Position numbers and translations under genes: made by a program. Below, piece by piece: positions 3,088 to 60,204 of a stretch of 64,000 bases of DNA. Within the stretch, counting starts at the first letter, position 1, and every line of letters starts with the position of its first letter. Source of the stretch: a bacterium (GTDB taxonomy: Bacteria > Patescibacteriota > WWE3 > 2-01-FULL-39-13 > JAACPI01); assembly GCA_009995545.1 (NCBI GenBank), contig JAACPI010000001.1:2475-66474 (forward strand), in the 5' to 3' direction. Below the pieces are notes generated by a model. It saw nothing but the letters and a program-made list of their open reading frames with translations, made no database searches and had not been told where the DNA came from.

Positions 3088-5676
3088 TTAAGGTGCTTGT
3101 TCCTGTTGATCCTTTATTGCTTTGTACGAATTATATAAGTAATAGTAAACGTATTCTGCTCTTTTATCTGCTACATTTCTAATTCCTTTAAGTATATTAA
3201 TAAAATCATCCCTAAAATTACTATCACTGCCTTGTGGGTATTCTTTATTGGCTAGTTCGCTTAGTTGGTCTTTTTTTGCCTCTATGGCTTTATATATTTT
3301 TTCTGTTTGAGCGTTTCGACCCAGCCTTGGGTATAAAAGCTCCGCAATGGTTCTTGGATCTAAAATGACGTTAACACCGTCTCCAAAGTTAATAGTAAAG
3401 TGCTCCATTCTTTTTTCTGCTAGTTTTGCTACTGTAGCTTCGCCGTTTCTTATTGTACTTCCAATTTTAAAACTTTCTGTTGGTTCTTGTTTTTTTACAG
3501 TGTAAAAATACTTAGTTTTAAATACAGGTTTTCCCTCTGCATCTTTTTCTTGTTTACCATTTCTGTCCAAGGATGGTACTAAAAATGCGCCCTCGAAGGG
3601 TAAGTCTTCCTCTTTTAAAATTAGGTCTGGTAATTGTAGGTTTTCAGGTGCCTCCTCACCTCCACCCTCCTCATTCTCATTAAGTACTCTCCAGTCTCCA
3701 TCTACAGGCTCTTCTTCTTGAGGTCTATTTACCTCAGGTGCTGGTCTTTGGGGTCTAATAGGAGGTACTGGTGGTGCAGGTGGGATATCTGGTTCTTCAT
3801 TGTTCCGTGGTCGTTCTGGAGCCCGCTGTGGCCTAAAATTTGCGGGTCCCTCGTATTTATCGCCAAATACAACCAACCCTTCATTTACAGTTGACCATAC
3901 TTCCGCCGCACTTACATAGGCAACAGAAAGCTGTACACCTGCATTTATCGCTTTAGCTATTGTAACTGCTTTATCTAAGTCTTTAAGTTGGCTAATCGCC
4001 TCTGTTTGTAAGTTATTTAAACCCTGAATTAAACCAACACCCCGGTTAAATAAATTTAGTCGTTCTTGATCTATATCTATGCTTTCAATTGGAGGGACAG
4101 GTGTATTTGTTAATAATCCATCCCAAATACCTCTCCAGGCAGAATGCAGGTTGCCTTTAGAGGCCTCTATTCCTTGTTTAAGGCTGTTTAAGGCATTTGC
4201 ATCGGTATTAACTTTATCTAGCCAATTACTCACGCTTTCGTACCCAAAACCGTGTACTCCACCTATCGTTACGCCGTTTAGATCATATGGGGCCCTGGTC
4301 ATAATTGCCTCTAGTAACTGGTCGTTACTAACTCCCAGGCTCTGTGCAGTCTCAGTGACTTGGGTTAGGACATGTGGGTTAGCCTGTAATTCTGTGTAGA
4401 TCTGTTTTATAGAATCAAATCGTAAAAGTCTCTCTTGCCCCCCGGCTGCCAGGTAAGCATCCACGTTGTTACCAAAACCGGCGCTATCGGCCGCTTTAAT
4501 TAGTTGGTGTTTTGCATAATCGTTAATTTCAACCCCACTTAATGAAAAAGAATCGCCTGTATGGGTTGGGGCCACATGCTTACTAAAAAATTCTTCGGCA
4601 TCTCCCTTCCACTGGTCTATCTGATGATTAAAATTGTCTGCTAAATCTGAAAAATGAGCGTCCTTAGATTCAAAAGCATTCTTGGCGTGTTCTGCAATTT
4701 CGGAGGCATTATCTAGGGCGGTTACAAATAAAAAGGATTTAGCGGCCCTAGAAATAGCTGAACCTATAACGTAATTTCGCTTTAACTTTTTAACTGCCCT
4801 TGCAACTTCTAACCTGCTTCTGTTAAAGGCTATTTTAACCTCTTCTGCCTTGCCCTCTTGTGCCATAGCAAAAGTTACTACACTAAGTGCATCTCTTCTT
4901 TTAGCAATCACATCATCATCTATGCTTTCGCTAAAGCCTGTAAGTGTGGCCTGAGTCATTAAATTTTGTAGTAATTTTTGTACTTGCGGCGTTTTTTCGG
5001 GTTGGTTTTGTAGTATTTGGGTGATGTCGGCAAATAGGTCTTTGTCAAAAAGCTCTATACCTAAATCTTTTACGTCAGTTCTAATCTCTTTATTTCTAGC
5101 TTTTGCTTTAAATGATTTTCGGGTAGCAATGCTTTCGGGCAGACTTAAAAAATCTGAGACAACTCGCCAGGCAGCTTTTAATACTTTTTTCTCGCCTAGG
5201 GCCTTTTCTATTTCTCTTGTTCTGCCTGAAACTTTTCTTTGGTAAAACTCCTGGGCACCTGCACCCCTTTGATCCACTTTTCTTACTTCCATTGCCCCAG
5301 AAACTGTTCCAGTTATAGCACCAACTATACCTGCAAGTGGGGGACCGCCCACCGTTCCAAATATAAGTTCTACTCCTGATCTGGCTGCTATTCCTGCAGC
5401 CACTGGTAAAGCAATTTCAGCAACTTTACCTGCTATCCTTGCTGCCTTGTTGCCTGGATGGGCCCTTTGTTCATAGTTGTCTGTGACATTTTCTGCATTA
5501 ACTAAATCAAAAAGGCTTTGAAGTGACTCACTGGCATCTTGAGGTATGCGGTAATTTCTTTTTACAACTTCGTGGATCGAGTCGGGGGCGGTCGGGGAGT
5601 AGCTTCCTTTGTGATCTGGTCCCTCGGTTGCGCTATCACGTAAGTTTTGAGCAATAAACCTTACTACTTCTGACAT
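3088..5676 (-). CDS. Large hypothetical protein (862 aa) with a glycine-zipper hydrophobic segment near the N-terminus and a Pro-rich hinge (PPAPPVPPIRPQRPAPE) before a roughly 200-aa C-terminal domain
   Basis: Long ORF of about 45-50% GC against a roughly 33% background. Its ATG overlaps the stop of the upstream 157-aa ORF (TAAATG). No catalytic motif recognised. Confidence 0.55.
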   Translation of the reverse strand: MSEVVRFIAQNLRDSATEGPDHKGSYSPTAPDSIHEVVKRNYRIPQDASESLQSLFDLVNAENVTDNYEQRAHPGNKAARIAGKVAEIALPVAAGIAARSGVELIFGTVGGPPLAGIVGAITGTVSGAMEVRKVDQRGAGAQEFYQRKVSGRTREIEKALGEKKVLKAAWRVVSDFLSLPESIATRKSFKAKARNKEIRTDVKDLGIELFDKDLFADITQILQNQPEKTPQVQKLLQNLMTQATLTGFSESIDDDVIAKRRDALSVVTFAMAQEGKAEEVKIAFNRSRLEVARAVKKLKRNYVIGSAISRAAKSFLFVTALDNASEIAEHAKNAFESKDAHFSDLADNFNHQIDQWKGDAEEFFSKHVAPTHTGDSFSLSGVEINDYAKHQLIKAADSAGFGNNVDAYLAAGGQERLLRFDSIKQIYTELQANPHVLTQVTETAQSLGVSNDQLLEAIMTRAPYDLNGVTIGGVHGFGYESVSNWLDKVNTDANALNSLKQGIEASKGNLHSAWRGIWDGLLTNTPVPPIESIDIDQERLNLFNRGVGLIQGLNNLQTEAISQLKDLDKAVTIAKAINAGVQLSVAYVSAAEVWSTVNEGLVVFGDKYEGPANFRPQRAPERPRNNEEPDIPPAPPVPPIRPQRPAPEVNRPQEEEPVDGDWRVLNENEEGGGEEAPENLQLPDLILKEEDLPFEGAFLVPSLDRNGKQEKDAEGKPVFKTKYFYTVKKQEPTESFKIGSTIRNGEATVAKLAEKRMEHFTINFGDGVNVILDPRTIAELLYPRLGRNAQTEKIYKAIEAKKDQLSELANKEYPQGSDSNFRDDFINILKGIRNVADKRAEYVYYYLYNSYKAIKDQQEQAP

Positions 5677-13467: not shown

Positions 13468-14151
13468 ATGAAAAATAAAAAAATATTTCATTTAAACTTT
13501 CTCTTTATTATAGCCATTCTATTTAGTCTTCCTTCTGTTATTAACGCTCAGAATTTGGGTGTTGAGGGCTTAGACAAAATGGGTAATAAGAACGGCAGCT
13601 TACAAAACAATGTTCATGTAGAGGACAAAAGTCGGCAAGAAAGGTTGCAAAACGTTGAGGAAATAAAGAACAAAAAAGAAACTAGAGCGGCGGAGCTACA
13701 AGAAAAGAAGAATGAGCTTAAAGAAAAAAAAGAGGTTGCTTCAGAACAAAAACTTGCAAGTCTTCGTTTAATGCTTTTCGATAAATTAGAAAAAGTAAAA
13801 GTTAGAGTTATAAATAGGGCCGATACTTTAGATTCTATAATAGTTCGTCTCGAAAATAATATTCTAGAACATTCCTCAAATATTGACTCGGCCACATTAG
13901 TTTCTGTGGGCAAAAAACTTGAAGAGGCTAAGCTGTTAATTAACAACTCTGTCTCCTCCGTGGAATCCCTCAAAATTTCCGAATCTTATCAAACGGGTGA
14001 GGAACTAAGGTTAGATGCACAAAATGTGCATTCCCAAATACTAGTTTCAGTTGAAGATTTAAAGTCTGCTAAGGATCTAATTAAGGAAGCTTTGGAAGAA
14101 CTAAAGTCCTCTAAAAATCTTAATGATTCTGGTTCTTCGATTAATCAGTAA
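13468..14151 (+). CDS. Secreted coiled-coil protein
   Basis: Signal peptide (…SVINAQN) followed by a heptad-rich Glu/Lys sequence. Confidence 0.4.
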   Translation: MKNKKIFHLNFLFIIAILFSLPSVINAQNLGVEGLDKMGNKNGSLQNNVHVEDKSRQERLQNVEEIKNKKETRAAELQEKKNELKEKKEVASEQKLASLRLMLFDKLEKVKVRVINRADTLDSIIVRLENNILEHSSNIDSATLVSVGKKLEEAKLLINNSVSSVESLKISESYQTGEELRLDAQNVHSQILVSVEDLKSAKDLIKEALEELKSSKNLNDSGSSINQ

Positions 14152-14156
14152 TTTAT

Positions 14157-14441
14157 TTGCGCGTATTTATGGTTAGGACTAGGTTTTTACTATGTTTAGC
14201 TTTTCTCACTATCCCTTTAATCTTAAGTGGTTGTTCAAATAGAGATTTGCAACTAAATAGTGTTTCTAAAGATGTTTCGGAGCCAACTGTTAACACACCG
14301 GGTGGGGGAGGGGAAGAGGAAAAAATCTTAGACACTATAAAGCAGAGTACTAACACAAACACCGAACAAATAGAGCGGGATCTAAAGGACTTAGAAGGTC
14401 AATTAGACCTGGACTTTAGTATTGATGATATAGCCCCTTAG
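14157..14441 (+). CDS. Small lipoprotein
   Basis: Lipobox LILSGCSN after a hydrophobic signal. The rest is acidic. Confidence 0.4.
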   Translation: MRVFMVRTRFLLCLAFLTIPLILSGCSNRDLQLNSVSKDVSEPTVNTPGGGGEEEKILDTIKQSTNTNTEQIERDLKDLEGQLDLDFSIDDIAP

Positions 14442-14613: not shown

Positions 14614-17600
14614 TTACTCTGTGTCTACTGTCGTTCCGTCTGAAGTTTTAAGCCCTTCTAAGGGAGCGACTGCGTTATTATCGTCTTCTACACTTATTAT
14701 CATCCAACTAAACATTATGTCTTTTTCTGACTTTACTGGCACTTCAATCTTAAATTTTTCCCCCTTATATTTTTCTGTCACAGCTAATGGATATTCTACT
14801 AGACTTTCTGGGGTTACAATGACTAAGGAGTTTTCGGCAATTCTACTGGTGAGGATTTCTATTTCTTGGCTACCCGCTTTTATAGTAGCTCTTCCAGCTG
14901 TATATAGTTGGTTTGAGCTGTCTTTATTTGCATTGTCTGCCGTCGTCTTGTAGCTTTCTTCGGTTATACTATATACATCCGCAACGTACTTCTTGGCTTT
15001 TATAGTGCCATCTTTTTCTATAGTTATTAGTCCGTTAAATATATCTATATTTTCGGAATTGGCTGAATTTTGGATATATAATTTTGAGCCTAAGCTACTG
15101 ATTGACCCTTGTGCTGCATCTATCATTATTAACCCTATATTGACTTTATTTGTTATAGTTAAATTTTTAGATGTTGTAGATCCTATAACTTGTAAGTCTT
15201 TGTATGCTATTAGATCCGAGTCACTGGTTACGGCGTTTTTAATCTCCTCCCAAACCCAATTATTGTCTGCTGATGCATTTATTTGATTCCGTTTTATTTC
15301 ATTTAACGATATGTTAATGGCTGAATTTTGCTCAATAAATGAGACCCTTGTTTCTATTTCTTTAATTCTCTTTTTGTTGTCTTCTGTTTCTTTTTGACTA
15401 GCTTTTTCACTTAATAATGCATTGACGTCTTTAATTTTTGAATTTTGAATACCTAACGTGTCCGTTACATAATCTGGCAGGTATTTAAATTGATCTACTG
15501 TTTCCTTGGTATCCAGGATTATGCCTTGTTGCTGTTGAATTGCTTTTACCAACAAAGTGGGTATTCTTGAGTAGTTTATTCCCATGTAACCATCCACTTT
15601 ATTGGTAAACACTATTTCTGGGAATATTTTAGCTGTTTGTTGTGCAATCAAACCAATATCGGTATTACTCGGTTGTCCTATCCAGTTAAAGGTGTAGGTC
15701 TTAAGATTTAAAACCTTTTCCAAAGTTGCGTCGGTTAGGGGTGATAAGTTCTCTTTTAAACGTAGGTCTGAAGATGAGGTTGTCAGGGTACCGTCCGCGG
15801 TTAGGTTTAGGTCATTTGCATACGCCCCTGAGCTTACTGAGCTGAATCTAGCGTTACCTGCTACGTCTAATCTCTCTCCTGGTGTTGTACTTCCTACACC
15901 CAAATTTCCGTCATACCCAATTGATATTACCGTGTTTGTACCTGTTGTAGTTCCTGTACCTATTCTTAAGTAGTCGTTATTATTCCCCAAACTGTCATTT
16001 ACATTAGCCAACCAGAAATCCGTCTCTAGGGGTGTACTTGCATTAAATATCATTGACCCGTTATCTCTGTTAAGTGTGATATTTTCTGTAAAAGTATTAG
16101 TGCCTGAAAATGTTTGTGATGAGCCAAGTAGTGCAAAAGTTCCGCTTGCGTCTGGTAAATTGTAAGTTCTTGGAGCTGTTAGGTTTGCTATGGTGAGCAA
16201 TCCGCGACCATCTGGGTCATAAAAGTACAGGCTTTTCCCCGACGATCCTGTAGCAGTAAAAGCATCGCCGGAAGTGACATCTCCTATGTTACTTATTCCG
16301 CTTGCGTCGTTTATTGTCCCACATATCCAGTTGCTTCCATCCCAAACTAAAAAATTCGATGCGCTACATCCTGATATTAAACTTAAGCCATCCCCGTCTA
16401 CTTCTAGTCCACTGTAGGACTGTGTGTTTTTTAGGTTTTGGCTGGTGGGTAGCTTTATTGTTATGTTGTCTGCTCCTATGGTAAGACCGTTGCCTGGTCC
16501 TATATTTAAAGTTACGCTTCCGGAGGTACCTCCTCCAGTTAGACCACTCCCTGCAGTGACACCGGTTATATCACCTGACGAACCCACTGCAGTCACCTCT
16601 TTCCACTCTAGTGTGTTGCCGGTTTGCCATGTTAAGACGTAGTCTGCACCACCGGACTGCGTCGGTAGGGTGTAAAGTAAGTTATTTGTTAAACTAGAGG
16701 GTGCCTTAAATCCGGTGTAGTTAGAACCTCCGCTTGTACTCTCCAAAAGCCTGAATTCCCCCTGATTTCCACCATTCACTGTTCCTAAACTTATCCCTTG
16801 CGTAGTTTCAAACAGAATTGAATTACCGAGAGTTGTTGTGTTTGTCATTTTTGGTATATAATTTATCGTCCCTGAACCGTCAAAACCTGACTCACCAACT
16901 CCTAAATTTTGATCTATATTCTCTAACACCGAGCTTATATTTTGATCTATATTCTCTAACACTGACTGTAAATTGTTGCTTGTAGGTGAGATATTTGTGA
17001 AATCCTCTGTATACACCCCTATTAAAGAAGATCCAGAACTAGAAGTAACATAATCCGATAAATTAACTCCTCCTATGCTAATAGCGCCTCCTGAGGGCAC
17101 CTGTATGTTGGTTACTGTTGTTAAGGTTGGGGATAGGGCAAAACTTATTCTTTTAGCACTGGATCTTGTCACGAGTATATCATTACCACTTATAAAATCT
17201 AATGCGTCCCCGTCCTTTATAACGTCACCGGAAGACCCATCTATAGTAGTTTTCCAAGAAGTAAAACCTTTGCTAGTTTCAGCCAATGCTATCTCCCCTC
17301 CATTTATGGAGATACCCGTCCCTGCGACTAAATAGTTCTCAATAGCTTGGACAGTCTCGTCACTGATATTTGTAGATATAGTTGGATTTTGAGGGTCTCC
17401 TGTAATTGAAATACCCGACCCTGCATTTAATTTGTAAACTATATTGCTCGCCGTTATAGAACCTGTACCCAGATCTAATGTCTGGCCATAAGCATTTATG
17501 GGAATATTTATTTCAAGAACTGGCGAGGTATTTATGTCTTTTGCTGCCAAAACACTACCTTTTAGGTCTAGGTTATTCTCAGTAACCGGGTTAATGTTCC

Positions 17601-18171
17601 TAACCTGTTTGTTTTTAAATGAGTTAATAAAATTAAAGGTTCTGAGGTTATATTTATTTAGTGCTGTAATTATAAGAGGTAACATCAAAATACAGGTTGT
17701 TACATAGATATGAGTTATTCTTATATTAGGAGCTTTAATTTTGGGGGTATCAATACCCCATTGAATATCGTTTACTTTATTTATTAGGGTTTTAAAGGTT
17801 TTCGTGCGAACAGTTTTTGATTTGAGTTTTACTTTATTCTCTTCCTGTGACATTAAAGCAGCCTTCTTTCTTTCTTTAAAAGCTTTTACCTCCTCAAATT
17901 TCTGAATAATTTGTGGTATCTTTAAGCTTTCTTCTTCTTGTAGTTTGTGGATTTTAACAAGTTTGTCTACTACATAGTCTGGTAGATAAGAATCCACCTG
18001 TTTTCCAGAGTATTTCCGAATCTGGTGGGGTAGTAGTCCGACCTTTATAAGGTATCTTATGCGGTTTTGTTCTTTACCAAAGCCAAAATACACACCCTTA
18101 TCTTTAGCGAGTTGTATTACTTCTGAAGTCAGAATTAAATTGTAAGTCTTGGCAGACTGATCAGAGATCAT
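14614..18171 (-). CDS. Giant membrane-anchored fibre or adhesin-like protein: N-terminal MerR-like HTH, one TM helix, Gly/Ser/Thr-rich beta-fibre, internal peptidase S74 (intramolecular chaperone autoprocessing) domain, then an approximately 260-aa C-terminal extension
   Basis: The S74 signature TSSSDLRLKENLSPLTDATLEKVLNLKTYTFNW...GLIAQQTAKIFPEIV...GYMGINYSRIPTLLVKAIQ encoded around 15480-15780 matches the phage tail-spike/endosialidase chaperone consensus (SDxRLKxNI...IAQEV..P..V). The N-terminus (YNLILTSEVIQLAKDKGVYFGFGKEQNRIRYLIKVGLLP) is MerR-like. The TM helix is IYVTTCILMLPLIITAL. Confidence 0.7.
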   Translation of the reverse strand: MISDQSAKTYNLILTSEVIQLAKDKGVYFGFGKEQNRIRYLIKVGLLPHQIRKYSGKQVDSYLPDYVVDKLVKIHKLQEEESLKIPQIIQKFEEVKAFKERKKAALMSQEENKVKLKSKTVRTKTFKTLINKVNDIQWGIDTPKIKAPNIRITHIYVTTCILMLPLIITALNKYNLRTFNFINSFKNKQVRNINPVTENNLDLKGSVLAAKDINTSPVLEINIPINAYGQTLDLGTGSITASNIVYKLNAGSGISITGDPQNPTISTNISDETVQAIENYLVAGTGISINGGEIALAETSKGFTSWKTTIDGSSGDVIKDGDALDFISGNDILVTRSSAKRISFALSPTLTTVTNIQVPSGGAISIGGVNLSDYVTSSSGSSLIGVYTEDFTNISPTSNNLQSVLENIDQNISSVLENIDQNLGVGESGFDGSGTINYIPKMTNTTTLGNSILFETTQGISLGTVNGGNQGEFRLLESTSGGSNYTGFKAPSSLTNNLLYTLPTQSGGADYVLTWQTGNTLEWKEVTAVGSSGDITGVTAGSGLTGGGTSGSVTLNIGPGNGLTIGADNITIKLPTSQNLKNTQSYSGLEVDGDGLSLISGCSASNFLVWDGSNWICGTINDASGISNIGDVTSGDAFTATGSSGKSLYFYDPDGRGLLTIANLTAPRTYNLPDASGTFALLGSSQTFSGTNTFTENITLNRDNGSMIFNASTPLETDFWLANVNDSLGNNNDYLRIGTGTTTGTNTVISIGYDGNLGVGSTTPGERLDVAGNARFSSVSSGAYANDLNLTADGTLTTSSSDLRLKENLSPLTDATLEKVLNLKTYTFNWIGQPSNTDIGLIAQQTAKIFPEIVFTNKVDGYMGINYSRIPTLLVKAIQQQQGIILDTKETVDQFKYLPDYVTDTLGIQNSKIKDVNALLSEKASQKETEDNKKRIKEIETRVSFIEQNSAINISLNEIKRNQINASADNNWVWEEIKNAVTSDSDLIAYKDLQVIGSTTSKNLTITNKVNIGLIMIDAAQGSISSLGSKLYIQNSANSENIDIFNGLITIEKDGTIKAKKYVADVYSITEESYKTTADNANKDSSNQLYTAGRATIKAGSQEIEILTSRIAENSLVIVTPESLVEYPLAVTEKYKGEKFKIEVPVKSEKDIMFSWMIISVEDDNNAVAPLEGLKTSDGTTVDTE
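16907..16972 (-). repeat. Two-copy 33-nt tandem repeat inside the fibre gene (encodes SVLENIDQNI/SVLENIDQNL)
   Basis: ttttgatctatattctctaacac is repeated with a 33-nt period. Confidence 0.8.
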
Positions 18172-18451
18172 TTAGGGCAGGTTATGAAATTGTACTTACG
18201 AGAAAATTATAGGAACATATTGCTATAAAAGCAATAACTAAATATATATACGACCTCCTGAGAAAAGGTATACCTATACCTACAGATTAAGCTTTAAAGA
18301 TATACAAGAAAGACAGTAGTAACCAGCTGCACCTATCAGTATAGCACATCGATTGACAGAAATTATTAAAGGCTTTAGTAAGGGGTTTAGTTTAAGGTAT
18401 ACTTTGTCATTTTTGGAACCTTATGTAGTATTTAGTCGGTATATGTCGTAG

Positions 18452-19024: not shown

Positions 19025-19714
19025 TTACTGTAGAGATACGTTGTAGGGTATAGTTACTCCCTCTCTAGTTACCCCCAAGTAAAGTATAGTTGAGTTTACT
19101 AACTCTATTGGAATATTTTTAGTCTTTACTACGTAGTTATTAGTCCCGAATACTCTTACATTGTCGTTTAGTGCTATTACTTCCAACACAATTTTAGGGT
19201 CATCCACCTTAATAAACCCTGTCTTTTCATTTATCGTAATCACTGGTGTAGTCTGTTCTGAGTATACGTTTAATTTTCCATCCCAGAGTCCTCTATTTCC
19301 ATTTACGAACACTGTAATCTGGTAAAGGCCTGTTTCTCCGGGTAAGGATATCTCTAGCTCTTCGTCTGACCAATAAACAACATCGTCTTTCCTTATCGCC
19401 TTGTTATTCAAAAGTACCTTACTTTCTTTTTGTGCAGCTCCGAAGTTATGACCGTAAATTAGAATGCTATCTCCCGGTTTTCCATAGTATTTGTCTATAT
19501 ATACTATTTGAGGGGGTTCCGTTGGGTAGGGCACTTTAGACTCATCTACTAACATTACTGGTCTTTCCTTTCCCGCTTCTGTAAATATCTGTCCTTCTCT
19601 TTGTAGTAATAGGTAGATTAGAGGTACCGCCATAACTAATGACAATAGTAAAGAAACCCCTATAGCTTTCTTTATATTTAAATTATAAAGTGTGAATAAG
19701 AGATTTTTAAGCAT
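19025..19714 (-). CDS. Hypothetical membrane-anchored protein (229 aa)
   Basis: N-terminal TM helix. No recognised motif. Confidence 0.4.
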   Translation of the reverse strand: MLKNLLFTLYNLNIKKAIGVSLLLSLVMAVPLIYLLLQREGQIFTEAGKERPVMLVDESKVPYPTEPPQIVYIDKYYGKPGDSILIYGHNFGAAQKESKVLLNNKAIRKDDVVYWSDEELEISLPGETGLYQITVFVNGNRGLWDGKLNVYSEQTTPVITINEKTGFIKVDDPKIVLEVIALNDNVRVFGTNNYVVKTKNIPIELVNSTILYLGVTREGVTIPYNVSLQ

Positions 19715-39364: not shown

Positions 39365-40489
39365 ATGGAACTAAATGACCGTTTTTATAAGTCAACTGAG
39401 GTCTCAGAGATTCTTGGAGTGTCTTTAAGAACACTCTATCGTTACATGGATTCGGGTAAAATCCAATCAGTACAGCTTCCAAGTGGAAGACATCGGTTTA
39501 CTAAACAGCAAGTGGAGTCTTTTTTGTACTCTAATGGCTCAGGTGGTTTAGGGCAAAATGTTCCTATTCAGTCTTATCAAAATAATGCTGACAGAGTTTA
39601 TGTAGATACTGGTTATTCACAAAACCAGAACCAGAACCAATACCAGAACCAGAATCAAAACTCAGGTCAGGGTCAAAACAATGCTTCTGGGATGCCAAAT
39701 AATCAATATAACGGACAGCAGACACCTTTTAACGAATCACAAGGACAACAGCCTGTAGCCCAGGTTAACCCTTATAGCGCACCGGTGCAAAACCAGAACG
39801 CTAGTCCCTTTGCATCTTCACCTTCTGTAAGCCCCCAAATGGATAACAATGTCGCTAATACTCCTGCAGCTCCTGTTGAGGAAGAAGCAGACGATTTAGA
39901 CGCTGAGTTAGAAGAGCTGTTGGCCTCTCTGGAGAGTGACTCCGAGGATGATACAGCTGTAGTAGAAAACTCATCACCTAATAGCGCCCCCCAAAATAAT
40001 GCAGACACTTCTAGTGCTGACCAAACCAAATCTTATACAGGTGGTTTAGGTGGTTTTGCGGATGAAGAAGAGGTTGAAGAAAAAATTACTATACCTAGCG
40101 TAGATGAGAATAATGTTGTTTATTTCTACTGTCCTTATAATCAGTTAAGGGCTATCGCTAGAATGGTAAAAACAACTTCTGAAGATAATGGCAAAAACTA
40201 TGCTTTTACAATGAACGCTGGTTTGTCGCTATACTTTCCTTTAGATCCTTTTTCTGTCATTCACTTCTATATAGAAGAATCTGATTTGGATTTTTGGAAA
40301 GATAACTTACAGCTTAAAGAAAGTAGTAAAAGTGACGCTAACATAGGTTTATTACTTACAAAAGGTGGGGCTTTAAACAATACTAAAGAAGTTAGTGGGT
40401 TAAAAGTTGTATCTAAAGAAGTAATGATAAACAACCTAAAAGCAAATGGCCTTGAAAATTTAATTTCTCAGGTCGAAAGTAAGCTTTAA
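39365..40489 (+). CDS. DNA-binding protein: N-terminal excisionase/MerR-type HTH, a Q/N-rich low-complexity region, an acidic tract and an uncharacterised C-terminal domain
   Basis: YKSTEVSEILGVSLRTLYRYMDSGKIQSVQLPSGRHRFTKQQVESFL (HTH_17-like), followed by NQNQNQYQNQNQN. Confidence 0.5.
   Translation: MELNDRFYKSTEVSEILGVSLRTLYRYMDSGKIQSVQLPSGRHRFTKQQVESFLYSNGSGGLGQNVPIQSYQNNADRVYVDTGYSQNQNQNQYQNQNQNSGQGQNNASGMPNNQYNGQQTPFNESQGQQPVAQVNPYSAPVQNQNASPFASSPSVSPQMDNNVANTPAAPVEEEADDLDAELEELLASLESDSEDDTAVVENSSPNSAPQNNADTSSADQTKSYTGGLGGFADEEEVEEKITIPSVDENNVVYFYCPYNQLRAIARMVKTTSEDNGKNYAFTMNAGLSLYFPLDPFSVIHFYIEESDLDFWKDNLQLKESSKSDANIGLLLTKGGALNNTKEVSGLKVVSKEVMINNLKANGLENLISQVESKL
39620..39662 (+). repeat. 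Simple CAGAAC-type microsatellite encoding the Q/N tract
   Basis: aaccagaaccagaaccaataccagaaccagaatcaaaa. Confidence 0.7.
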
Positions 40490-44747: not shown

Positions 44748-47135
44748 TTAACGATCATTCTGAAAGTACCACAACATTCCGTCTACTAACTCTTCCATAT
44801 GTTTTGGTGTAAGGGCCAATTTGTTTTGTTGATTTAACCAACTTACATATTCCTTAAAAAAGTCCGGGCCCAGTACTATTAATTGGCTTCCAGTACTCCG
44901 AGTTATGTTTAATACGTGGTCGGTTAATTCTTTAACACGAAAAGCTCCAAATATTTTGCCGTAACTACTGTTATTAGCAATAACTCTATGACTGCCGTAT
45001 TTATCTTGGCTTATTACACCTGGGGTATTTTTTATACACACATCCAAAAGTTCTGCAAAAGCATAGCCCATAAGATCATTTGGTATGTATTTTATTAACC
45101 AATCTTGTGTAAGAGTATCCAGTGCTATCACTCTAGGGGTAACCTCCATACCTGCGGATAATGCTGCATTAAATTTATTTGCATAAGCCTCGTCGTAGTA
45201 AAAGACCTCTTTTTTAGTTTCTTGTTTTTTACTTGGCCCGCCAGTTTTAATCATTTTAGATCTTTTTATAGCAACTTCTACACCTTCTTGTGCCTGTATT
45301 TCTTCCAAAGCTTGTCTGTGGGCTGTACTACCGGGTTTGAAGGGCATTAGCATTTGTAAGTACTCAAAAATTTTATCGTAACTTATAAACTCTAAAAAGA
45401 CCTGTTTTAAGTCTAAAATGTCCTCGTTGCCCTCTAAATTAGCCGTATCTACTAAGTAGTATAAAAATTTTATTCTAGCATCAATGTCTGCCTTTAATGT
45501 TTCTACAGTCTGGATAATACTTGGCCTTAGTCTTACAAGATTTGTTCGTTGACCTCTACAGTACCTTTTTATGTTTTCTAGCCTGCCCGCCGTAAAATCA
45601 AAATCCCCTAAGTTATGGGGGTGAATAGCCTGTTGTATCAATATTATAAGATGTTCACCCATTAAAATTACATCTTCGTCTGTTATTGCAATTTCTGGTT
45701 TTTTATCTTCATTTTTCAATTTTAGCTTGTAGATAGATCCTTCCAACTTCCAACCGTTCTGCTGACCATTTAAGATTTTGGAATAAATCTCTTCTCTTTC
45801 ACTACCCTTTAACTGTAAAAGCAAACTTAAAGTTTGTGCCAGCAATTCCTGAGTTTCTATAGAAACGGTTGCTTTAGACCAGCTGTGTAGAGCGTTTTCT
45901 ACATCCTGTATAGAAAATTCTTCACCCACAAAATTTTGTAGTGCCAGTTCTACTGCTTCTATCCCACCTACTCTTTGGGCAGTAGCATGCTCTTTGTTGG
46001 ATCCATCAAACCCTTTTTTAGATAAGTATTGAAGTAATTGTCCTTGTGAGCAACATCTAAGTTCTTCTATTGCTTTTGCTAAAGATGGTCTATCTAACGA
46101 ACTTAAAAAAGTTCTTGTTGTTGTGCCCAAAAAATTCGCTTTGTCTAACTTATGTTCTAAAGTTTGCAATAAAATTAAAAAGGTTCTGTGGTTTAGTCCC
46201 GATGCTGTAATAATACCTTTTACAGCTTCTAGTGTGTCTTGTGAAGATTTCTCTACTAAAATAGGTTGTACTTCGGATCTTACTCTACCTGAAATACCTC
46301 TCACTTCTCTAATCATTTGGTATATTCTTGCCTGTTTAGTATTTTGGCACAAAGTTAAGTACAGGTCTTGCTGTCTGGTAGCCGCGATTTCTTTTCTACC
46401 CAGGTGTTTAAAACCCGCCCCCTCAGTAGTTTTAATTCCCGATAAATCCAGTAGTTCTTGTATTGGGTCCACCCCTTCCTCTTCGTCAAAATTTTTCAAA
46501 GTCTCGGGATCAACAATTAATTCTTGTCTTTGTTTTTTAAGTGTTGGATTGAATTTTAAAAAATCCCTGTATTTTGAAACTTGCTCCCAAATATTTACTA
46601 AGGGTAAGTTGGTCGTTTTCTCAACGTTAAATAAAACTTCTCTTCTGTAGGCTGCAATGGCGGGTAATACTGGGTAAATAACTGCTCTAAAGTCTTCTAT
46701 TTGTTTTTCTATTTCTGCTAACTGTTCTACTGCGTAATTTTGTTGGTACCTTAAGGCAGTTCTTGCCGTAGTTACAAGGCAAGGAAAGTCTTGTGCCCCA
46801 TCGTAAATATCCTGTAATAGGGGAGTAGTATAGTAGTCAACTTCAAATCCAAAGTTTGCGTGTATAAATTGCTTTTCTAAGTACTCATAGTAGTAAATAT
46901 TAGACGCTTCTTCAGGTTTTGCCTGTGGGGTAGAGTTTTGTGGTGTGAAGTAGTTTTCTCCAAACAGCTGTTTAATAAGTAATACCTCTTCTTGTTTGAT
47001 ATAGGGCTGTTCAAAAGGAATACTTGTTTCTTCCATCACTCTATTAGCGGCCTCTAGAAGACAGTCTCTCCACTCTTGTTGTGCTGGGTTTTCAAACTCT
47101 ATTTGATTTTCGTTTGTATCTTGTTTTAGTTTCAT
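44748..47135 (-). CDS. Large hypothetical protein (795 aa), 34 bp upstream of secE on the same strand
   Basis: Long ORF, predominantly helical by composition, with no recognisable catalytic motif. The C-terminal roughly 150 aa has faint macro-like spacing (VIANNSSYG…LIVLGPDF). Confidence 0.5.
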   Translation of the reverse strand: MKLKQDTNENQIEFENPAQQEWRDCLLEAANRVMEETSIPFEQPYIKQEEVLLIKQLFGENYFTPQNSTPQAKPEEASNIYYYEYLEKQFIHANFGFEVDYYTTPLLQDIYDGAQDFPCLVTTARTALRYQQNYAVEQLAEIEKQIEDFRAVIYPVLPAIAAYRREVLFNVEKTTNLPLVNIWEQVSKYRDFLKFNPTLKKQRQELIVDPETLKNFDEEEGVDPIQELLDLSGIKTTEGAGFKHLGRKEIAATRQQDLYLTLCQNTKQARIYQMIREVRGISGRVRSEVQPILVEKSSQDTLEAVKGIITASGLNHRTFLILLQTLEHKLDKANFLGTTTRTFLSSLDRPSLAKAIEELRCCSQGQLLQYLSKKGFDGSNKEHATAQRVGGIEAVELALQNFVGEEFSIQDVENALHSWSKATVSIETQELLAQTLSLLLQLKGSEREEIYSKILNGQQNGWKLEGSIYKLKLKNEDKKPEIAITDEDVILMGEHLIILIQQAIHPHNLGDFDFTAGRLENIKRYCRGQRTNLVRLRPSIIQTVETLKADIDARIKFLYYLVDTANLEGNEDILDLKQVFLEFISYDKIFEYLQMLMPFKPGSTAHRQALEEIQAQEGVEVAIKRSKMIKTGGPSKKQETKKEVFYYDEAYANKFNAALSAGMEVTPRVIALDTLTQDWLIKYIPNDLMGYAFAELLDVCIKNTPGVISQDKYGSHRVIANNSSYGKIFGAFRVKELTDHVLNITRSTGSQLIVLGPDFFKEYVSWLNQQNKLALTPKHMEELVDGMLWYFQNDR

Positions 47136-49519: not shown

Positions 49520-52273
49520 ATGTCAAAAGCACTAGCAGAATCTCAATTTAAGGGTGATCAAGAAAAGGTTTTTATAGACTTGTTTGGTAATGCTTGCGTA
49601 GAGATAGCTAACGAGGAATACTTTGATGCTTACAATAAATATCCAAAACCTACTGGTGAGGAAGACCCTCATTTTAATACTTTTTTACAATCTAGAATTT
49701 CTGTTTACCAACGAGCTTTGGAAATAGGAAAATCCTGCTTAGATAATAGATTTACAAACGACCCAGAGGTTACTTTGCAAGATCCCAAAGACGGTGTATT
49801 TAAAACCTATAAATATGACCCTGTTAGTAGGGGGGTAGTTCTCGTTAATGAAGCAGTCTCCAAACAGGGTAATAGTTTTATAGATTTTACGCTAAATTTT
49901 GGAGAAGAATCTGCCTCGGACAATTCAGATAACGGAGACTTCCGCCGATCGGAAAATGACGAGATTAACTTTTACTCTGATTATACCTTGATGCACCAAA
50001 TGCTTTCAAAGGGCATGGAAGAGTTAGGTGCTCAATATACTTTTTTTGAGGCAGCCTTAAATAAATTTAAAAGATTTGACTCCACTGGTTGGGCTACATT
50101 AAAAAACACACCCCCCATTGATATAAACTTAAAAAGGGCTAAAAACTATCTTGCGATTCTAGATAAAATGCCCTCAAATGTAGAAAAAAGCTCTTGGTTT
50201 GTAAACCAAAGGGTCTTAGATCCTTCTTTAGAGAACTGGTCAGATAGAAGTAATCAGTTGCTAGAAGAGGCTGAAATTTTGGAAGGATTTTTTAATTCTG
50301 GCCCGGAGTATAAAACTGTACGAACTTTAAACTCTGAGAATTCTTTTGCTGTAGCATTGATTGGGGAAAGATATACCCCTTCTTCATTTCCTCAAATATA
50401 TATTGACGATGTTATTGCGATTAGTAGGATAATTTATGATCTAGCTATTTCTATACCCGATCCAATTGACAGAGAAAGTGCCTTAACAAATGTTGCTAGC
50501 GAGATTTTTATTAAAAGGTCTTCTCAGTTAGTCTCTTTATTGGAATCAAGAGGCATGCCTGTTGAATTGGGGTTAAATTACTTTAGGCAGATATTACAAA
50601 AGTACATTATGCGTCTCCCGGAACAATACTGCGTAGACTTTTTTGAGGGTAGAGAAGTTGAATTTACAATGAGAAACTTACTTTATGGTAGATATAACAC
50701 TGTTCACGATGAAAGAGAAAACTCCGAACGACATTTAGCCTCTTTTTTACAGCAGTATAAACAGGGGAAGTACAAGTCAGACTCGTTGGAGTCTTTAGAA
50801 CCCGGTACCGTTAAAGAAGTTTACGCCAAACTGGTAACAGGAAAACTAGAGGGTTTTGACTCAGAAAGCACTAGAAATGCCCTTATAGCCACTTTGAGAT
50901 ATTTTCAAATCGACTACGAGGATTCTTTGCAGGTTTTTGTTCCCACCGAAGGGTCGGTTACGTGCAGAACTTTTTTTGGGTCGATTAAAGATAACTTAAA
51001 ACAGCTTTCCCCTGTGGTTATCGAAGTGTTTTCTGAAATTTACGCTTATAAAAGTCTAGTTAACGAACTTAATGAGCTTGGAAAAGCAGGTCAAATAAAA
51101 GCTGACGCCCTTTTGGTTGGAAGAATTAAAAACAAGTATTCTGGCGAGAACGTCTCTGATTTCAGATCTGGTGATAAATTATATTTAGATTTGGATGTTT
51201 TTGTTGAATGCCACTTGCCCCAGATTGCAAGAAACATTAAATCTGTAATTGAGCAAGTTTCTTACTATAGTCAGCCTTTAAGTTCCGAAAATATTATATT
51301 ATCTGTAAAAAAATGGGTTAAAGAAAGACCAGAACTGGTAAGCCCCGCGTGTGCGGCTTTTGGTTTAAGCCCTCTCCAATTAGAGCAATATATAGCTGCT
51401 AAAGTAACCTTTATAACTGTAAAATCTAAGCGCTATTTTGCAAGTAACCCTAATTTTATGTTAGTTACCCTAGAAAACTCTTGGGCAGAAAACTTAGCAG
51501 AGCAAGAAAGTAAAAAAAAAGTTGAAAAACTTGTAAATAAAGGATTCACCTGGCAGGAATTCTCTGCTTTACCCGTTATAGTGCAAAATAGGCTGGTAGA
51601 TGCTGTTTTCGAAATGCCCGATACCAAGGAAAAACAGGAATTGCTTTTAGATATCTTTTACTATCTAAGGCTTAAATATTCTATGAGAGGGCCACTAAAG
51701 TTGTTTGATGTTACAAAACAGAAATCAGAAGAGCCCTTAGTAAAAATTAAACGCATTCAGGCTGTGTCTCATTTTTCTGTTAGAGCCATTCAAGGTTTAT
51801 CTAGTGAGTCTGTACTTGCAGATTATCTTGATACCGTTTTACTAAGGGATAGACTCTTTTCTACTATAGACAGCGGCATACCCAAACCTTTTACGGGTCA
51901 GTTGGGTAAAGAACTTAGACAAGAATTTTTTACATATTATTTTGCTAAACATGGCACTAGAAAGGGAAGTGTTATACCAAAAACCCTATACAGTAAAGAC
52001 ACTATATCTTTGATGGCAAGGGATTTTGTACAAGAAAACTTAAGTATAGTCGAGGAAAAAATGGAACGGAGAAACGTAAAAATTAGAAGAGCGGAAAACC
52101 ATTATGATTTAGACCGATTTACTAATGAACTTGTAGAATATGCTGAGGATGCCTTTGAAAGAACCCGAAGGTTACTTTACGGTAATGGATACGTGGTTGA
52201 GAGAGGTTTAACAAGTAAGGTTGTTATACAAACATTAACATCTCTACTTGAGGCTTCCTTAGAAAGAATATAA
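49520..52273 (+). CDS. Large hypothetical protein (917 aa)
   Basis: Long ORF with no TM segment, no signal peptide and no nucleotide-binding or metal-binding motif visible. Confidence 0.5.
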   Translation: MSKALAESQFKGDQEKVFIDLFGNACVEIANEEYFDAYNKYPKPTGEEDPHFNTFLQSRISVYQRALEIGKSCLDNRFTNDPEVTLQDPKDGVFKTYKYDPVSRGVVLVNEAVSKQGNSFIDFTLNFGEESASDNSDNGDFRRSENDEINFYSDYTLMHQMLSKGMEELGAQYTFFEAALNKFKRFDSTGWATLKNTPPIDINLKRAKNYLAILDKMPSNVEKSSWFVNQRVLDPSLENWSDRSNQLLEEAEILEGFFNSGPEYKTVRTLNSENSFAVALIGERYTPSSFPQIYIDDVIAISRIIYDLAISIPDPIDRESALTNVASEIFIKRSSQLVSLLESRGMPVELGLNYFRQILQKYIMRLPEQYCVDFFEGREVEFTMRNLLYGRYNTVHDERENSERHLASFLQQYKQGKYKSDSLESLEPGTVKEVYAKLVTGKLEGFDSESTRNALIATLRYFQIDYEDSLQVFVPTEGSVTCRTFFGSIKDNLKQLSPVVIEVFSEIYAYKSLVNELNELGKAGQIKADALLVGRIKNKYSGENVSDFRSGDKLYLDLDVFVECHLPQIARNIKSVIEQVSYYSQPLSSENIILSVKKWVKERPELVSPACAAFGLSPLQLEQYIAAKVTFITVKSKRYFASNPNFMLVTLENSWAENLAEQESKKKVEKLVNKGFTWQEFSALPVIVQNRLVDAVFEMPDTKEKQELLLDIFYYLRLKYSMRGPLKLFDVTKQKSEEPLVKIKRIQAVSHFSVRAIQGLSSESVLADYLDTVLLRDRLFSTIDSGIPKPFTGQLGKELRQEFFTYYFAKHGTRKGSVIPKTLYSKDTISLMARDFVQENLSIVEEKMERRNVKIRRAENHYDLDRFTNELVEYAEDAFERTRRLLYGNGYVVERGLTSKVVIQTLTSLLEASLERI

Positions 52274-57648: not shown

Positions 57649-60204
57649 ATGGCCATAATGTACCAAGCTGTAGATAATGATCGTGTTCCAGGTGAATATT
57701 GTCCTTTATCAAACACAGTAGGGAGTGAAAATAAAGCATTATCTGAATTTACTCCTGCAGATATTTTTACAAAATCAGACCTTGGGCCTGTTCTTGCAGA
57801 AGTAATTACTGTGGGTAGGCAGTTTCATGAGGCAACCGGTATCATTCCCCGTGCTCTTATAATTCCTGTTTCTGGGACTTTGCAAGTAGAGACAAGGATA
57901 CCCGGCGTATCCTCTATTGTAGTCCCTCGTTCCGTTGATTTTATAGGAAGTCTTTCTGTAGACCCTGTCTTATTAAATGAGCAACTTTGTGCAAACGGTG
58001 TATCCCTTTTAACAATTCGTAAACAAATAAAAGCAGCTAACGATATTTTAAATACACCCTCAACTTCTAGAACACTTAGGCAAAGTACTGTAAAACAATT
58101 AGCTGAACTTGAGGCAAAACAGTCATTGTTGGTGAGTGGTATTTTATCTGCATCAGGTGCTTTATACCTACCTTTTTCTAAAACAGAGACACCTGTATCT
58201 GTACCTCAAAACAGTACGGGTAATAAAACCCCCTTACCTCCGATTGTTCCCACACCTAGCAGCTCGGGTAAAAAGTCTTCAAAGACTACAGGAGGGGAAG
58301 TTGTGTCCCTTGATGAAGTTACTAAACCTTTGCCTCAGAAAAAAAGACGTAATGGCGCCCTTATTGCTATTACAAGTACAGTTATTGCCTCGTTGGTAGT
58401 GGGTTGTGCTTCAGGTAAACCGGTTGACTCTGCTCCCTCACCTACGGTGACTATTGCAGTTCCTGCTAACTCTGTACCAGAACAAATATTACCTGAGGGT
58501 CTAGATGTTAGAGAGGTAAATGTACATTTTGATACATCGGCAATTAAGGCTGAGCTTCCTAACGGCACTACCGTAACTATCCCTAATTTAGAAACATTGT
58601 TAGCGGAATCTTCTTTGGGAGTTAGTACTACTATTAATGCAGATTCTGGTGCTAAGGTACGAGGCTACACCTTGGATTCCGAGGGTAATCCCATAATTGA
58701 TGGCGTCGTTAAAAACTTGCCTAACGGTAGCCCTGTTGTTGTTGTAGGTATAAAAAAAGCATCTGACGAGGCACCCGCCCCAGAGGATAACTGGGCATTG
58801 CTTGAGGACGGAACCTCCGTTGCAGCAAGTTTAGTAAACCTTGTCTCTGCAGAGCGTCTGATTGGTACTGGTGGAGATCAAGCATCTTTAGAAAAAATGA
58901 ATGAGGAACTTGCTAAGGTAACAGGATTATCTGTAGGTGAGGTAGCTTTATTACCGGAATCGATACGTAGTATTTTAATAAGAGGTGCAGGTTCTTCCTA
59001 TACTATTGAAGGCTATTCTGTCGCAGCTCTACTTCCCAACAGTAATTTATTTGTTTTAACAGGCCCAGATGGTCGTATTGTTTTTTCTCCCGCGGACAGT
59101 ATAGCCTCAGTTTTGGGTCTTTCAGCTGAGGAATACTCTAATTTAATGGCAAATATAAGTGTTGTTGTAAACCCACAAACTCTAGGAGACCTTTCAATAT
59201 ACATGGGCACTGTACTTTCGGTAGATTTTGCTACTGAATATTCTCAGGGTGTACCGAATTTTGAGGCACAAAATATACCTACTGAACTCTCCAGCAGGTT
59301 TCCAGATTTGTCTATACGTGGGAAGGAAAGTACCGTTCCTCCCAGATTAGTTCAAACAATTTTGGGCAGGGATGTTACAGTTGCAGTTTGGGACACAGAA
59401 TCCTCAAATTGGGTGCAATCTGGTTTAACACAAGCTGAGTTAGAAGAAATTGAAAGTAGTAACGTAATTCTTTTTAACGATGGTAAAGGCGACGGGAATA
59501 AAAAACCACTAGAGTTGGGTCCTTTTTACGAAGATACTGTTGGTAGCTTGGCCTTATATGGAATAGCTGCTTCAGATTACAAGTTTACTCAAGTTGACAT
59601 TTTAAACAAATCAGATGGAACCCCAACAGGGTGGAAATTCGGTTCTTTGTCAATTGATATTTATCAGAAGGATGTTGATGGAAGTTACACTGCTCAAAAT
59701 TGGTTGATTCAATCGGGGAGTGTCTTTATATCTCCAAATGGTAAAAGATTTACCTCAATCGTACAACAGGGTGGTTCTACAATCGGTATTGGTGAACTGC
59801 CAGAACATTTATTCCCAGATAGAGATTTAGGAGATGGGGGTAGTTTTACAAAAGTTGGTAATTCTCCCACCCCAAATACCCCTATAAGTGTAGGTGAACC
59901 TGTAGTACTTTGGTGGCAGAATTTTGCATCGGATAATGGTTATGCAGAAAAGGTAGCTTCTGCTACTGGTAGTCTTGGAGATTACCTGAGCTCAGGTAAT
60001 TTAGACGGTACAACTGTCAGACTTGCAGGTCTAGCGTTGCAGAGAGGTGTAGATGCCAACTTTACGCTAGGTGGTTACTCTTTAGCACGATTCACCATGG
60101 AGGAAATTTCTGCAGCTATATCTTCCCACAGTCCCTTGCCAGTACCCGAAGGTCTTTTTAGCGGTGGACCTGGGTTTATAGTAAGATTTCCGGCTCAAAA
60201 ATAG
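57649..60204 (+). CDS. Large bitopic surface protein (851 aa): roughly 230-aa cytoplasmic N-domain, Ser/Pro-rich linker, TM helix (ALIAITSTVIASLVVG), roughly 600-aa extracellular domain
   Basis: ORF plus hydropathy. No recognisable catalytic motif. Confidence 0.5.
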   Translation: MAIMYQAVDNDRVPGEYCPLSNTVGSENKALSEFTPADIFTKSDLGPVLAEVITVGRQFHEATGIIPRALIIPVSGTLQVETRIPGVSSIVVPRSVDFIGSLSVDPVLLNEQLCANGVSLLTIRKQIKAANDILNTPSTSRTLRQSTVKQLAELEAKQSLLVSGILSASGALYLPFSKTETPVSVPQNSTGNKTPLPPIVPTPSSSGKKSSKTTGGEVVSLDEVTKPLPQKKRRNGALIAITSTVIASLVVGCASGKPVDSAPSPTVTIAVPANSVPEQILPEGLDVREVNVHFDTSAIKAELPNGTTVTIPNLETLLAESSLGVSTTINADSGAKVRGYTLDSEGNPIIDGVVKNLPNGSPVVVVGIKKASDEAPAPEDNWALLEDGTSVAASLVNLVSAERLIGTGGDQASLEKMNEELAKVTGLSVGEVALLPESIRSILIRGAGSSYTIEGYSVAALLPNSNLFVLTGPDGRIVFSPADSIASVLGLSAEEYSNLMANISVVVNPQTLGDLSIYMGTVLSVDFATEYSQGVPNFEAQNIPTELSSRFPDLSIRGKESTVPPRLVQTILGRDVTVAVWDTESSNWVQSGLTQAELEEIESSNVILFNDGKGDGNKKPLELGPFYEDTVGSLALYGIAASDYKFTQVDILNKSDGTPTGWKFGSLSIDIYQKDVDGSYTAQNWLIQSGSVFISPNGKRFTSIVQQGGSTIGIGELPEHLFPDRDLGDGGSFTKVGNSPTPNTPISVGEPVVLWWQNFASDNGYAEKVASATGSLGDYLSSGNLDGTTVRLAGLALQRGVDANFTLGGYSLARFTMEEISAAISSHSPLPVPEGLFSGGPGFIVRFPAQK

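Follow-up and report, generated by a model that had tools for sequence, protein, structure and literature searches.

A predicted membrane-anchored fibre protein of a Patescibacteria bacterium with an internal S74 chaperone domain followed by a tailspike-type C-terminal domain

Fibres carrying a peptidase S74 domain are known from phages, including K1F endosialidase and T5 pb1, in which S74 cleavage exposes the tip of the mature fibre. Among cellular proteins, they are found in the mosaic adhesive trimeric (MAT) fibres of Bdellovibrio bacteriovorus; Bd3182 belongs to the S74 class of these fibres, and Bd2133 has a beta-sandwich tip that is not S74 (PMC10769870). Bd3182 cleaves itself, which exposes its binding tip, and the S782A substitution blocks the processing and abolishes localization to the prey bdelloplast (PMC10769870). 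This report concerns a gene in a 64,000-nucleotide stretch of contig JAACPI010000001.1, called the window below, that encodes an 1185-amino acid protein with an internal S74 domain. We consider it reasonably probable that its product is a type-II-anchored (N-in, C-out) trimeric surface fibre of a bacterium of the candidate phyla radiation (CPR, or Patescibacteria), constructed from phage tail-fibre and tailspike modules. The original prediction, made before any database search, was a surface attachment fibre in a small-genome bacterium; the analysis supports this, and the architecture generalizes to a large family.

The window protein and the MAT fibres have much in common. Both are chromosomal, non-phage proteins of about 1000 amino acids that are placed, in the window protein by prediction, on the surface of a bacterium living on other bacteria, and both combine a phage-like shaft with an SDxxxK self-cleaving S74 domain or a beta-sandwich tip, with modular swapping of the tips. 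However, MAT fibres by their published description begin with a signal peptide and a beta-rich domain that is conserved and has ~130 amino acids, whereas the window protein begins with a predicted MerR-fold winged helix-turn-helix (wHTH) and a transmembrane (TM) helix. In addition, MAT fibres end in an S74 domain or a tip domain, whereas the window protein has both in series, the S74 domain being followed by a linker and a C-terminal domain (CTD), and its host belongs to another phylum (CPR) in which no outer membrane is expected. The features shared with the phage fibres (K1F endosialidase, T5 pb1; PF13884) are the Ser-Lys dyad, an upstream IGTxxPxxxLxV-type motif and a predicted logic of trimerization followed by cleavage. 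In the phage profiles and structures that were examined, the S74 domain ends the protein, which is consistent with the earlier statement that it is strictly C-terminal in phages; in contrast, the window protein continues for 303 more residues, is membrane-anchored and is chromosomal. What is new relative to the MAT and phage S74 fibres is the anchor, which combines a TM helix with a MerR fold assigned from a structure model, and the internal position of the S74 domain ahead of a conserved CTD of the tailspike type.

Two other systems resemble parts of the protein, although the likeness to MYRF is superficial. MYRF also has a DNA-binding-type domain, a single TM helix, an internal S74/ICA (intramolecular chaperone auto-processing) domain and a further C-terminal region in one polypeptide. 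However, the order in MYRF is DNA-binding domain, ICA and TM helix, all of it cytosolic, and cleavage frees the DNA-binding domain, whereas the order in the window protein is the opposite, HTH (residues 10-92), TM helix (152-172) and S74 (799-882), and cleavage would occur outside of the cell; furthermore, the DNA-binding domain is of the Ndt80 type in MYRF and of the MerR type, by predicted fold, in the window protein. The capsule depolymerase tailspikes with a K1-lyase_C domain (PF24146; PDB 7w1c and 9k4a) and the tailspike of cyanophage Pam1 (7eea) have a C-terminal domain that is like the terminal beta-sandwich of the CTD, and as in these depolymerases, a beta-helix precedes the K1-lyase_C-like domain in some relatives of the window protein (e.g., P0089). 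The window protein differs from them because it has no beta-helix or lyase match, its CTD is below the Pfam threshold and it has an S74 domain upstream.

The fibre gene is located at 14614..18171 on the minus strand, as are all of the protein parts listed below, and consists of 1185 codons plus a stop codon. The single open reading frame (ORF) that had been predicted was borne out: it is uninterrupted, and its ATG is the first possible start codon. The protein corresponds to the deposited record NCT55221.1 ('hypothetical protein [bacterium]'). Because the identical 1185-amino acid protein is present on at least 23 contigs (JGI, ENA, Logan and NCBI), the ORF is not an assembly artefact. A full-length, syntenic orthologue (P0001; 1161 amino acids, 58% identical) with the same ends and an equal gene order occurs in another metagenome lineage.

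The genes surrounding the fibre gene are core cellular genes, namely those for Rho, a LysM-M23 peptidase, a TPR membrane protein, def, a TIG-domain membrane protein, Obg, leucyl-tRNA synthetase (LeuRS) and arginyl-tRNA synthetase, and no phage genes are present among them. The original prediction had placed def and a gene for a TM protein after the fibre gene; with respect to transcription, however, def and the TIG/TM gene are both upstream, with a gap of 280 nucleotides to the fibre gene. The LeuRS encoded in the window is nearest to those of candidate division WWE3 genomes (57%), with 55% to a Saccharibacteria genome, and the named members of the CTD family come from Daviesbacteria and Microgenomates. 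Therefore, the host is assigned to the CPR/Patescibacteria. It is a tiny, probably host-dependent bacterium.

The predicted S74 intramolecular chaperone domain was confirmed by profile searches and comprises residues 799-882 (15526..15777). PF13884 matches residues 801-854 with an E-value of 1.4e-13 (51.3 bits, cutoff 22), the PHROG profiles match the protein at residues 799-882 only and always with the C-terminal end of the phage profile (e.g., 2218-2301 of 2313), and the domain matches the tail fibre of PDB 8jov (E 1.5e-4). A scan of the whole protein against Pfam, NCBIfam and PHROGs found no family besides S74. The predicted self-cleavage motif, S801-D802-L-R-L-K806 (15754..15771), has the Ser-Lys dyad in the form S-D-x-x-x-K, with the cut predicted between S801 and D802. 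All 35 S74 domains that were aligned have the catalytic Ser and Lys, including every one that is accompanied by a CTD.

The proposed extension beyond the S74 domain was also found. The window protein has 303 residues after the S74 homology region, versus tails of 11-63 amino acids in S74 proteins without the CTD and of about 200-525 amino acids in those with it. The predicted released fragment would consist of residues 802-1185 (384 amino acids, 42.7 kDa). The original prediction had asked whether homologues keep such an extension. Among the best 150 CTD representatives, 33 have the arrangement S74-linker-CTD, in which 32-331 residues separate the two domains, and so, the internal S74 domain is not unique to the window protein.

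The S74 domain and the CTD are joined by a charged linker (residues 883-976; 15244..15525), which corresponds to linkers of 32-331 amino acids in the relatives. The coiled coil that had been proposed to follow the S74 domain was not established, as a crude heptad scan flags residues 952-983 only. The beta-rich C-terminal domain that had been proposed was recovered as the CTD, a recurrent module at residues 977-1164 (14680..15243) delimited with phmmer and a local hidden Markov model (HMM). An exhaustive phmmer search with residues 886-1185 (E<=1e-3; cluster representatives at 50% identity) yielded 640 cluster representatives, in which the conserved part corresponds to residues ~981-1160. The matching proteins have 120 to 7408 amino acids, and the CTD is at the extreme C-terminus in every match, a position that suits a module acting at the end of export.

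The terminal beta-sandwich of the CTD (residues ~1089-1164; 14680..14907) is K1-lyase_C-like. It is modelled by AlphaFold with a pLDDT of 89-96, and its fold resembles the solved K1-lyase_C domain; PF24146 itself matches the CTDs of 14 of 25 aligned relatives at E<=0.01 (best E 1.9e-7), and four of 19 matches carry a precomputed PF24146 annotation. The BFVD fold matches of the CTD are K1-lyase_C-containing phage proteins, pectate-lyase tailspikes and tail fibres, and among its structural neighbours are the fibre tips of pyocins and phages. At the sequence level, a CTD profile searched against the PDB gave only chance-level matches to HisF and a weak match to 7eea.

The N-terminal module (residues ~10-92; 17896..18144), predicted to be cytoplasmic, is a MerR-fold wHTH according to a structure model, in which the order beta-a1-a2-wing-a3-a4, with a beta hairpin as the wing, matches the MerR winged HTH; TnrA, TipA, BmrR, CbpM, MerR, CueR and RacA are the MerR-fold proteins named for it. 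The assignment rests on this predicted fold, because sequence profiles gave no signal. For example, an hhalign comparison of a profile of the window-type N-terminus (three sequences, Neff 1.7) with the canonical MerR N-termini of relatives returned a probability of 0.2. A word-indexed homologue search with residues 1-174 had no match and missed the orthologue P0001 as well, so it was not counted as evidence. Therefore, the MerR/excisionase-like HTH of the original prediction stands by the predicted fold and by the Pfam matches of the relatives, whereas the expected profile match for the window's own copy was not obtained. After the wHTH come a basic linker and a TM helix instead of the long dimerization helix and C-terminal effector-binding domain of classical MerR regulators. 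The MerR fold is likewise found outside of the classical metal and drug sensors in GlnR/TnrA (a minimal wHTH), RacA (a chromosome anchor) and CbpM/DafA (chaperone modulators), but unlike the window protein, these lack a fused TM helix and extracellular fibre.

The juxtamembrane linker (residues 93-151; 17719..17895) is basic and helix-prone and appears as a low-confidence long helix in the model. The single TM helix, a predicted signal anchor at residues ~152-172 (17656..17718), was found as anticipated and has the same position in P0001; the hydrophobic stretch 150-173 is the only segment of the protein with a Kyte-Doolittle value above 1.4 over 19 amino acids. A TM helix lies within residues 71-221 in the relatives with a MerR-type or window-type N-terminus. 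Residues 1-150 contain 20% Lys plus Arg, and the isoelectric point (pI) is 9.86 for residues 1-151 and 4.2 for the mature ectodomain, which fits the N-in, C-out orientation.

The predicted extracellular shaft (residues 173-798; 15778..17655) consists to 47% of Gly, Ser, Thr and Asn and has repeats in common with the S74 fibres P0003, P0008 and P0009. The sequence LGVGSTTPGERLDV is located at residues 757-770 of the shaft, about 30 residues upstream of S801. The 33-nucleotide tandem repeat of the original prediction is present as two copies that are 85% identical (16903-16935 and 16936-16968); they encode SVLENIDQN twice, at residues 403-411 and 414-422. The orthologue P0001 has a single copy, so the duplication is recent. 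The duplication falls in residues 386-424, where a crude scan sees the only strong heptad-like pattern in the shaft, and relative to the orthologue, it adds 11 residues to a short helical or coiled segment.

Among the CTD proteins with a recognizable N-terminus, 19 start with one or more canonical MerR/HTH_17 domains and a TM helix (two of them with S74), three have the window-type N-terminal module and a TM helix (two with S74), and 21 have only a TM helix or signal peptide (five with S74). The divergent window-type module also heads P0088, a protein of 3674 amino acids with a TM helix and the same CTD. When the canonical MerR assignment was checked on ten full-length relatives, all ten passed the Pfam cutoffs and four had two tandem HTHs. 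The middle regions consist of collagen repeats, a right-handed beta-helix/NosD or sequence with no Pfam match. P0144 (2886 amino acids) and P0158 (3195 amino acids) have the complete layout from MerR and TM helix to S74 and CTD, with all Pfam matches above the cutoff. Because every N-terminally complete relative with S74 and CTD (P0144, P0158, P0063, P0110, P0041, P0048 and P0112) starts with either MerR and TM or a TM/signal segment, these proteins are concluded to be cell-anchored. Two smaller family genes, P0003 and P0178, are at syntenic chromosomal positions by the genes for ATP synthase, LeuRS and ComEA-ComEC.

Some members of the family are unusual in other respects. Two tandem MerR/HTH_17 domains precede the TM helix in P0064, P0113, P0116, P0141 and P0178. 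The giant members P0161 (7408 amino acids) and P0102 (6172 amino acids) are annotated in JGI only as 'excisionase family DNA binding protein'. P0003 and P0178, which are of the MerR-TM-(fibre)-CTD type, follow ATP synthase and three small genes and adjoin LeuRS and ComEA/ComEC (the loci concerned are L005, 7871-9956; L011, 6001-7296; L004, 1-4160), and ComEC-ComEA-LeuRS are near P0001 as well. The MerR-TM-fibre-CTD locus may be old and positionally conserved, with an ectodomain that changes fast. A scan of GTDB genomes with an alignment of the two orthologues found no relative. No description of the MerR-TM-fibre-S74-CTD architecture or of the family was found in full-text searches, which did not cover subscription journals, and the large CTD family seems to be undescribed in the literature.

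The region upstream of the fibre gene is near-invariant (18172..18290 on the minus strand) when compared with the orthologous locus. About 115 nucleotides upstream of the ATG, together with the first ~45 coding nucleotides (18125-18290), match the orthologous locus L003 with 95-98% identity, versus a mean of 61% and a peak of 83% for the coding sequence. The region contains TTGCTT (18229-18234) and TATAAT (18206-18211) separated by 17 nucleotides, and a perfect palindrome, ATTGCT-N5-AGCAAT (18219-18235), which lies over the -35 box and is unique within the window. The region may be a tightly constrained promoter plus operator, possibly autoregulatory, as judged from the two sequences compared. 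A leader RNA was considered for it and rejected (fold z-score -0.62, no Rfam match). A promoter/terminator scan gave no excess over shuffled sequences, and inverted repeats in front of two other genes of the family were no guide, given the AT-richness of the DNA.

The favoured reading, a surface fibre anchored by its N-terminus, draws on the conserved orthologue and synteny, the core-gene context without phage genes, the invariant dyad, the pI asymmetry and the MerR fold. According to this reading, the signal-anchor helix 152-172 would be inserted in the membrane and about 1000 residues would be exported. The C-terminal cassette, consisting of S74 (799-882), linker and CTD (977-1164), would emerge last and set the register of the three chains, after which the shaft would fold from its C- to its N-terminus; tailspike C-terminal domains are known to drive folding and trimerization (PMC10653864). 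The Ser801/Lys806 dyad would then cut after Ser801 and shed the 384-residue C-terminal fragment, 42.7 kDa per chain, baring the fibre tip as Bd3182, T5 pb1 and K1F endosialidase do. Residues 1-801 (HTH-TM-fibre) would stay in the membrane, with the fibre projecting outward and the basic MerR-fold wHTH in the cytoplasm. The mature fibre most likely serves as an adhesin for host or partner cell surfaces. That the chains trimerize, that S74 cleaves and the CTD is lost, that the fibre acts as an adhesin and that the HTH binds DNA are points that we infer, whereas the ORF, the S74 domain with its dyad, the TM helix, the MerR and tailspike-CTD similarities at the level of fold, the architecture across the family and the cellular setting of the gene are shown by the analysis.

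Several observations weigh against this reading. No HTH family is found in the window protein by Pfam or NCBIfam, and PF00376, PF13411 and PF12728 do not match at E<=1. The shaft has no match in the PDB by sequence search or in GenBank phages by tblastn, and we infer its surface exposure as well. The window copy of the CTD is below the Pfam threshold for PF24146, the pLDDT of the model is only 58-72 over the first half of the CTD, the monomer model is silent on the oligomeric state, and the CTD fold is also like that of lectins (discoidin, Helix pomatia agglutinin and H-type lectin). Finally, about 50 long proteins among the best 150 CTD representatives have no detectable S74 domain. In these relatives, the CTD must stay on the mature protein, which fits a distal binding tip at least equally well. 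This leads to a rather unlikely alternative in which the CTD is a functional, lectin-like receptor-binding tip that stays on the fibre, the S74 domain being only a trimerization clamp that does not cleave, or the cleaved C-terminal trimer remaining attached non-covalently. The CTD ends not only many fibres without S74 but also beta-helix proteins such as P0089 (Beta_helix/NosD and CTD), whose layout is that of a tailspike depolymerase, where the K1-lyase_C-like domain belongs to the mature protein, and its structural neighbours include lectins as well as the fibre tips mentioned above. However, none of the 35 S74 domains has lost the Ser/Lys dyad, even where a CTD follows, which argues that cleavage is retained in the CTD proteins, and the part after the Ser is released in every characterized S74 protein (PMC10769870). 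Thus, for the choice between a disposable folding nucleus and a lectin-like tip, the presence of the CTD on fibres without S74 favours a role in the mature protein, and the invariant dyad favours its removal.

The N-terminal module raises other alternatives. The original prediction suggested a membrane-bound one-component regulator, in which the fibre would sense host contact and S74 processing would feed into signalling by the MerR-like HTH. A MerR fold and a TM helix do occur in one protein, the palindrome over the -35 box of the near-invariant promoter region could be an autoregulatory operator, and MYRF reportedly provides a precedent of an S74 domain that can gate a membrane-bound transcription factor. 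However, the S74 site is predicted to be extracellular, about 630 residues beyond the TM helix, and because the cut would lie outside and distal to this helix, leaving HTH-TM-fibre intact, it cannot free the HTH. In addition, 17 of the 19 MerR and TM relatives with a CTD have no S74 domain, no effector or dimerization domain follows the wHTH, a trimeric anchor would fit poorly with a dimeric operator complex of the MerR type, and the promoter conservation comes from two sequences only. The proposed coupling is therefore unsupported, and such a regulator is quite improbable. Another unlikely possibility is that the MerR-wHTH and TM helix form a true DNA-binding anchor that tethers the nucleoid or promoters at sites of host contact, or a contact- or force-gated regulator freed by a second protease. 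Each trimeric fibre would then cluster three DNA-binding domains under the membrane, and its own palindromic promoter would be a possible target. The idea that the gene is a virion tail-fibre gene of a phage or prophage, with the N-terminal part being an annotation artefact or a separate gene, is effectively refuted, even though S74 and K1-lyase_C-like modules are typical of phages. The flanks are core genes in conserved synteny, the reading frame runs from the N-terminal module into the fibre part without a stop codon, and the start and upstream region are conserved in the orthologue. Apart from the start, residues 1-260 contain just two Met codons, at 107 and 163, and codon 163 falls within the TM helix. 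Like the shaft, the CTD has no match in GenBank phages by tblastn, and a scan of IMG/VR with residues 796-1185 found none.

Other genes in the window can be mentioned briefly. The second gene upstream of the fibre gene (19025-19714, minus strand) encodes a 229-amino acid protein that combines an IPT/TIG domain with a TM helix at its N-terminus; the order TIG-def-fibre is kept in the orthologous locus, and the TIG protein is another small surface protein. Two small ORFs on the plus strand (14157-14441 and 13468-14151) are convergent with the fibre gene and encode, respectively, a 94-amino acid protein with a lipobox-like LSGC and a 227-amino acid protein in which a signal peptide precedes a charged, helix-rich body; no Pfam family matches either of them, and genes of similar size are at the same place in the orthologous locus. 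Four large ORFs encoding 795-917 amino acids (3088-5676 and 44748-47135, minus strand; 49520-52273 and 57649-60204, plus strand) match no Pfam family at E<=1e-3 and none of the local CTD, S74 and MerR HMMs. A soluble 374-amino acid protein encoded at 39365-40489 (plus strand) has a canonical N-terminal HTH_17/MerR domain (Pfam E 3.3e-10), no TM helix, a long Gln/Asn-rich low-complexity linker and an uncharacterized C-terminal domain. This indicates that the type of HTH that heads many of the CTD fibres is used elsewhere in the genome, too.

To our knowledge, little has been learned, apart from type IV pili, about the means by which CPR/Patescibacteria recognize and grip their hosts. The family, with at least 640 clusters at 50% identity, supplies concrete candidates for host attachment in these bacteria, and it is a case in which phage tail-fibre and tailspike modules have been turned into chromosomal, membrane-anchored surface fibres. 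It also provides a new architectural setting for the S74 self-cleaving chaperone, which is internal and followed by a tailspike C-terminal domain. The MerR-wHTH and TM module forms the N-terminus of dozens of CPR surface fibres of up to 7408 amino acids, which raises the question of why a cytoplasmic MerR-type domain is fused to extracellular fibres. If it were a true DNA anchor, this would be a previously unrecognized link of cell-cell attachment to the genome in episymbiotic bacteria. In conclusion, the CTD family may be a way in which CPR bacteria grip other cells.

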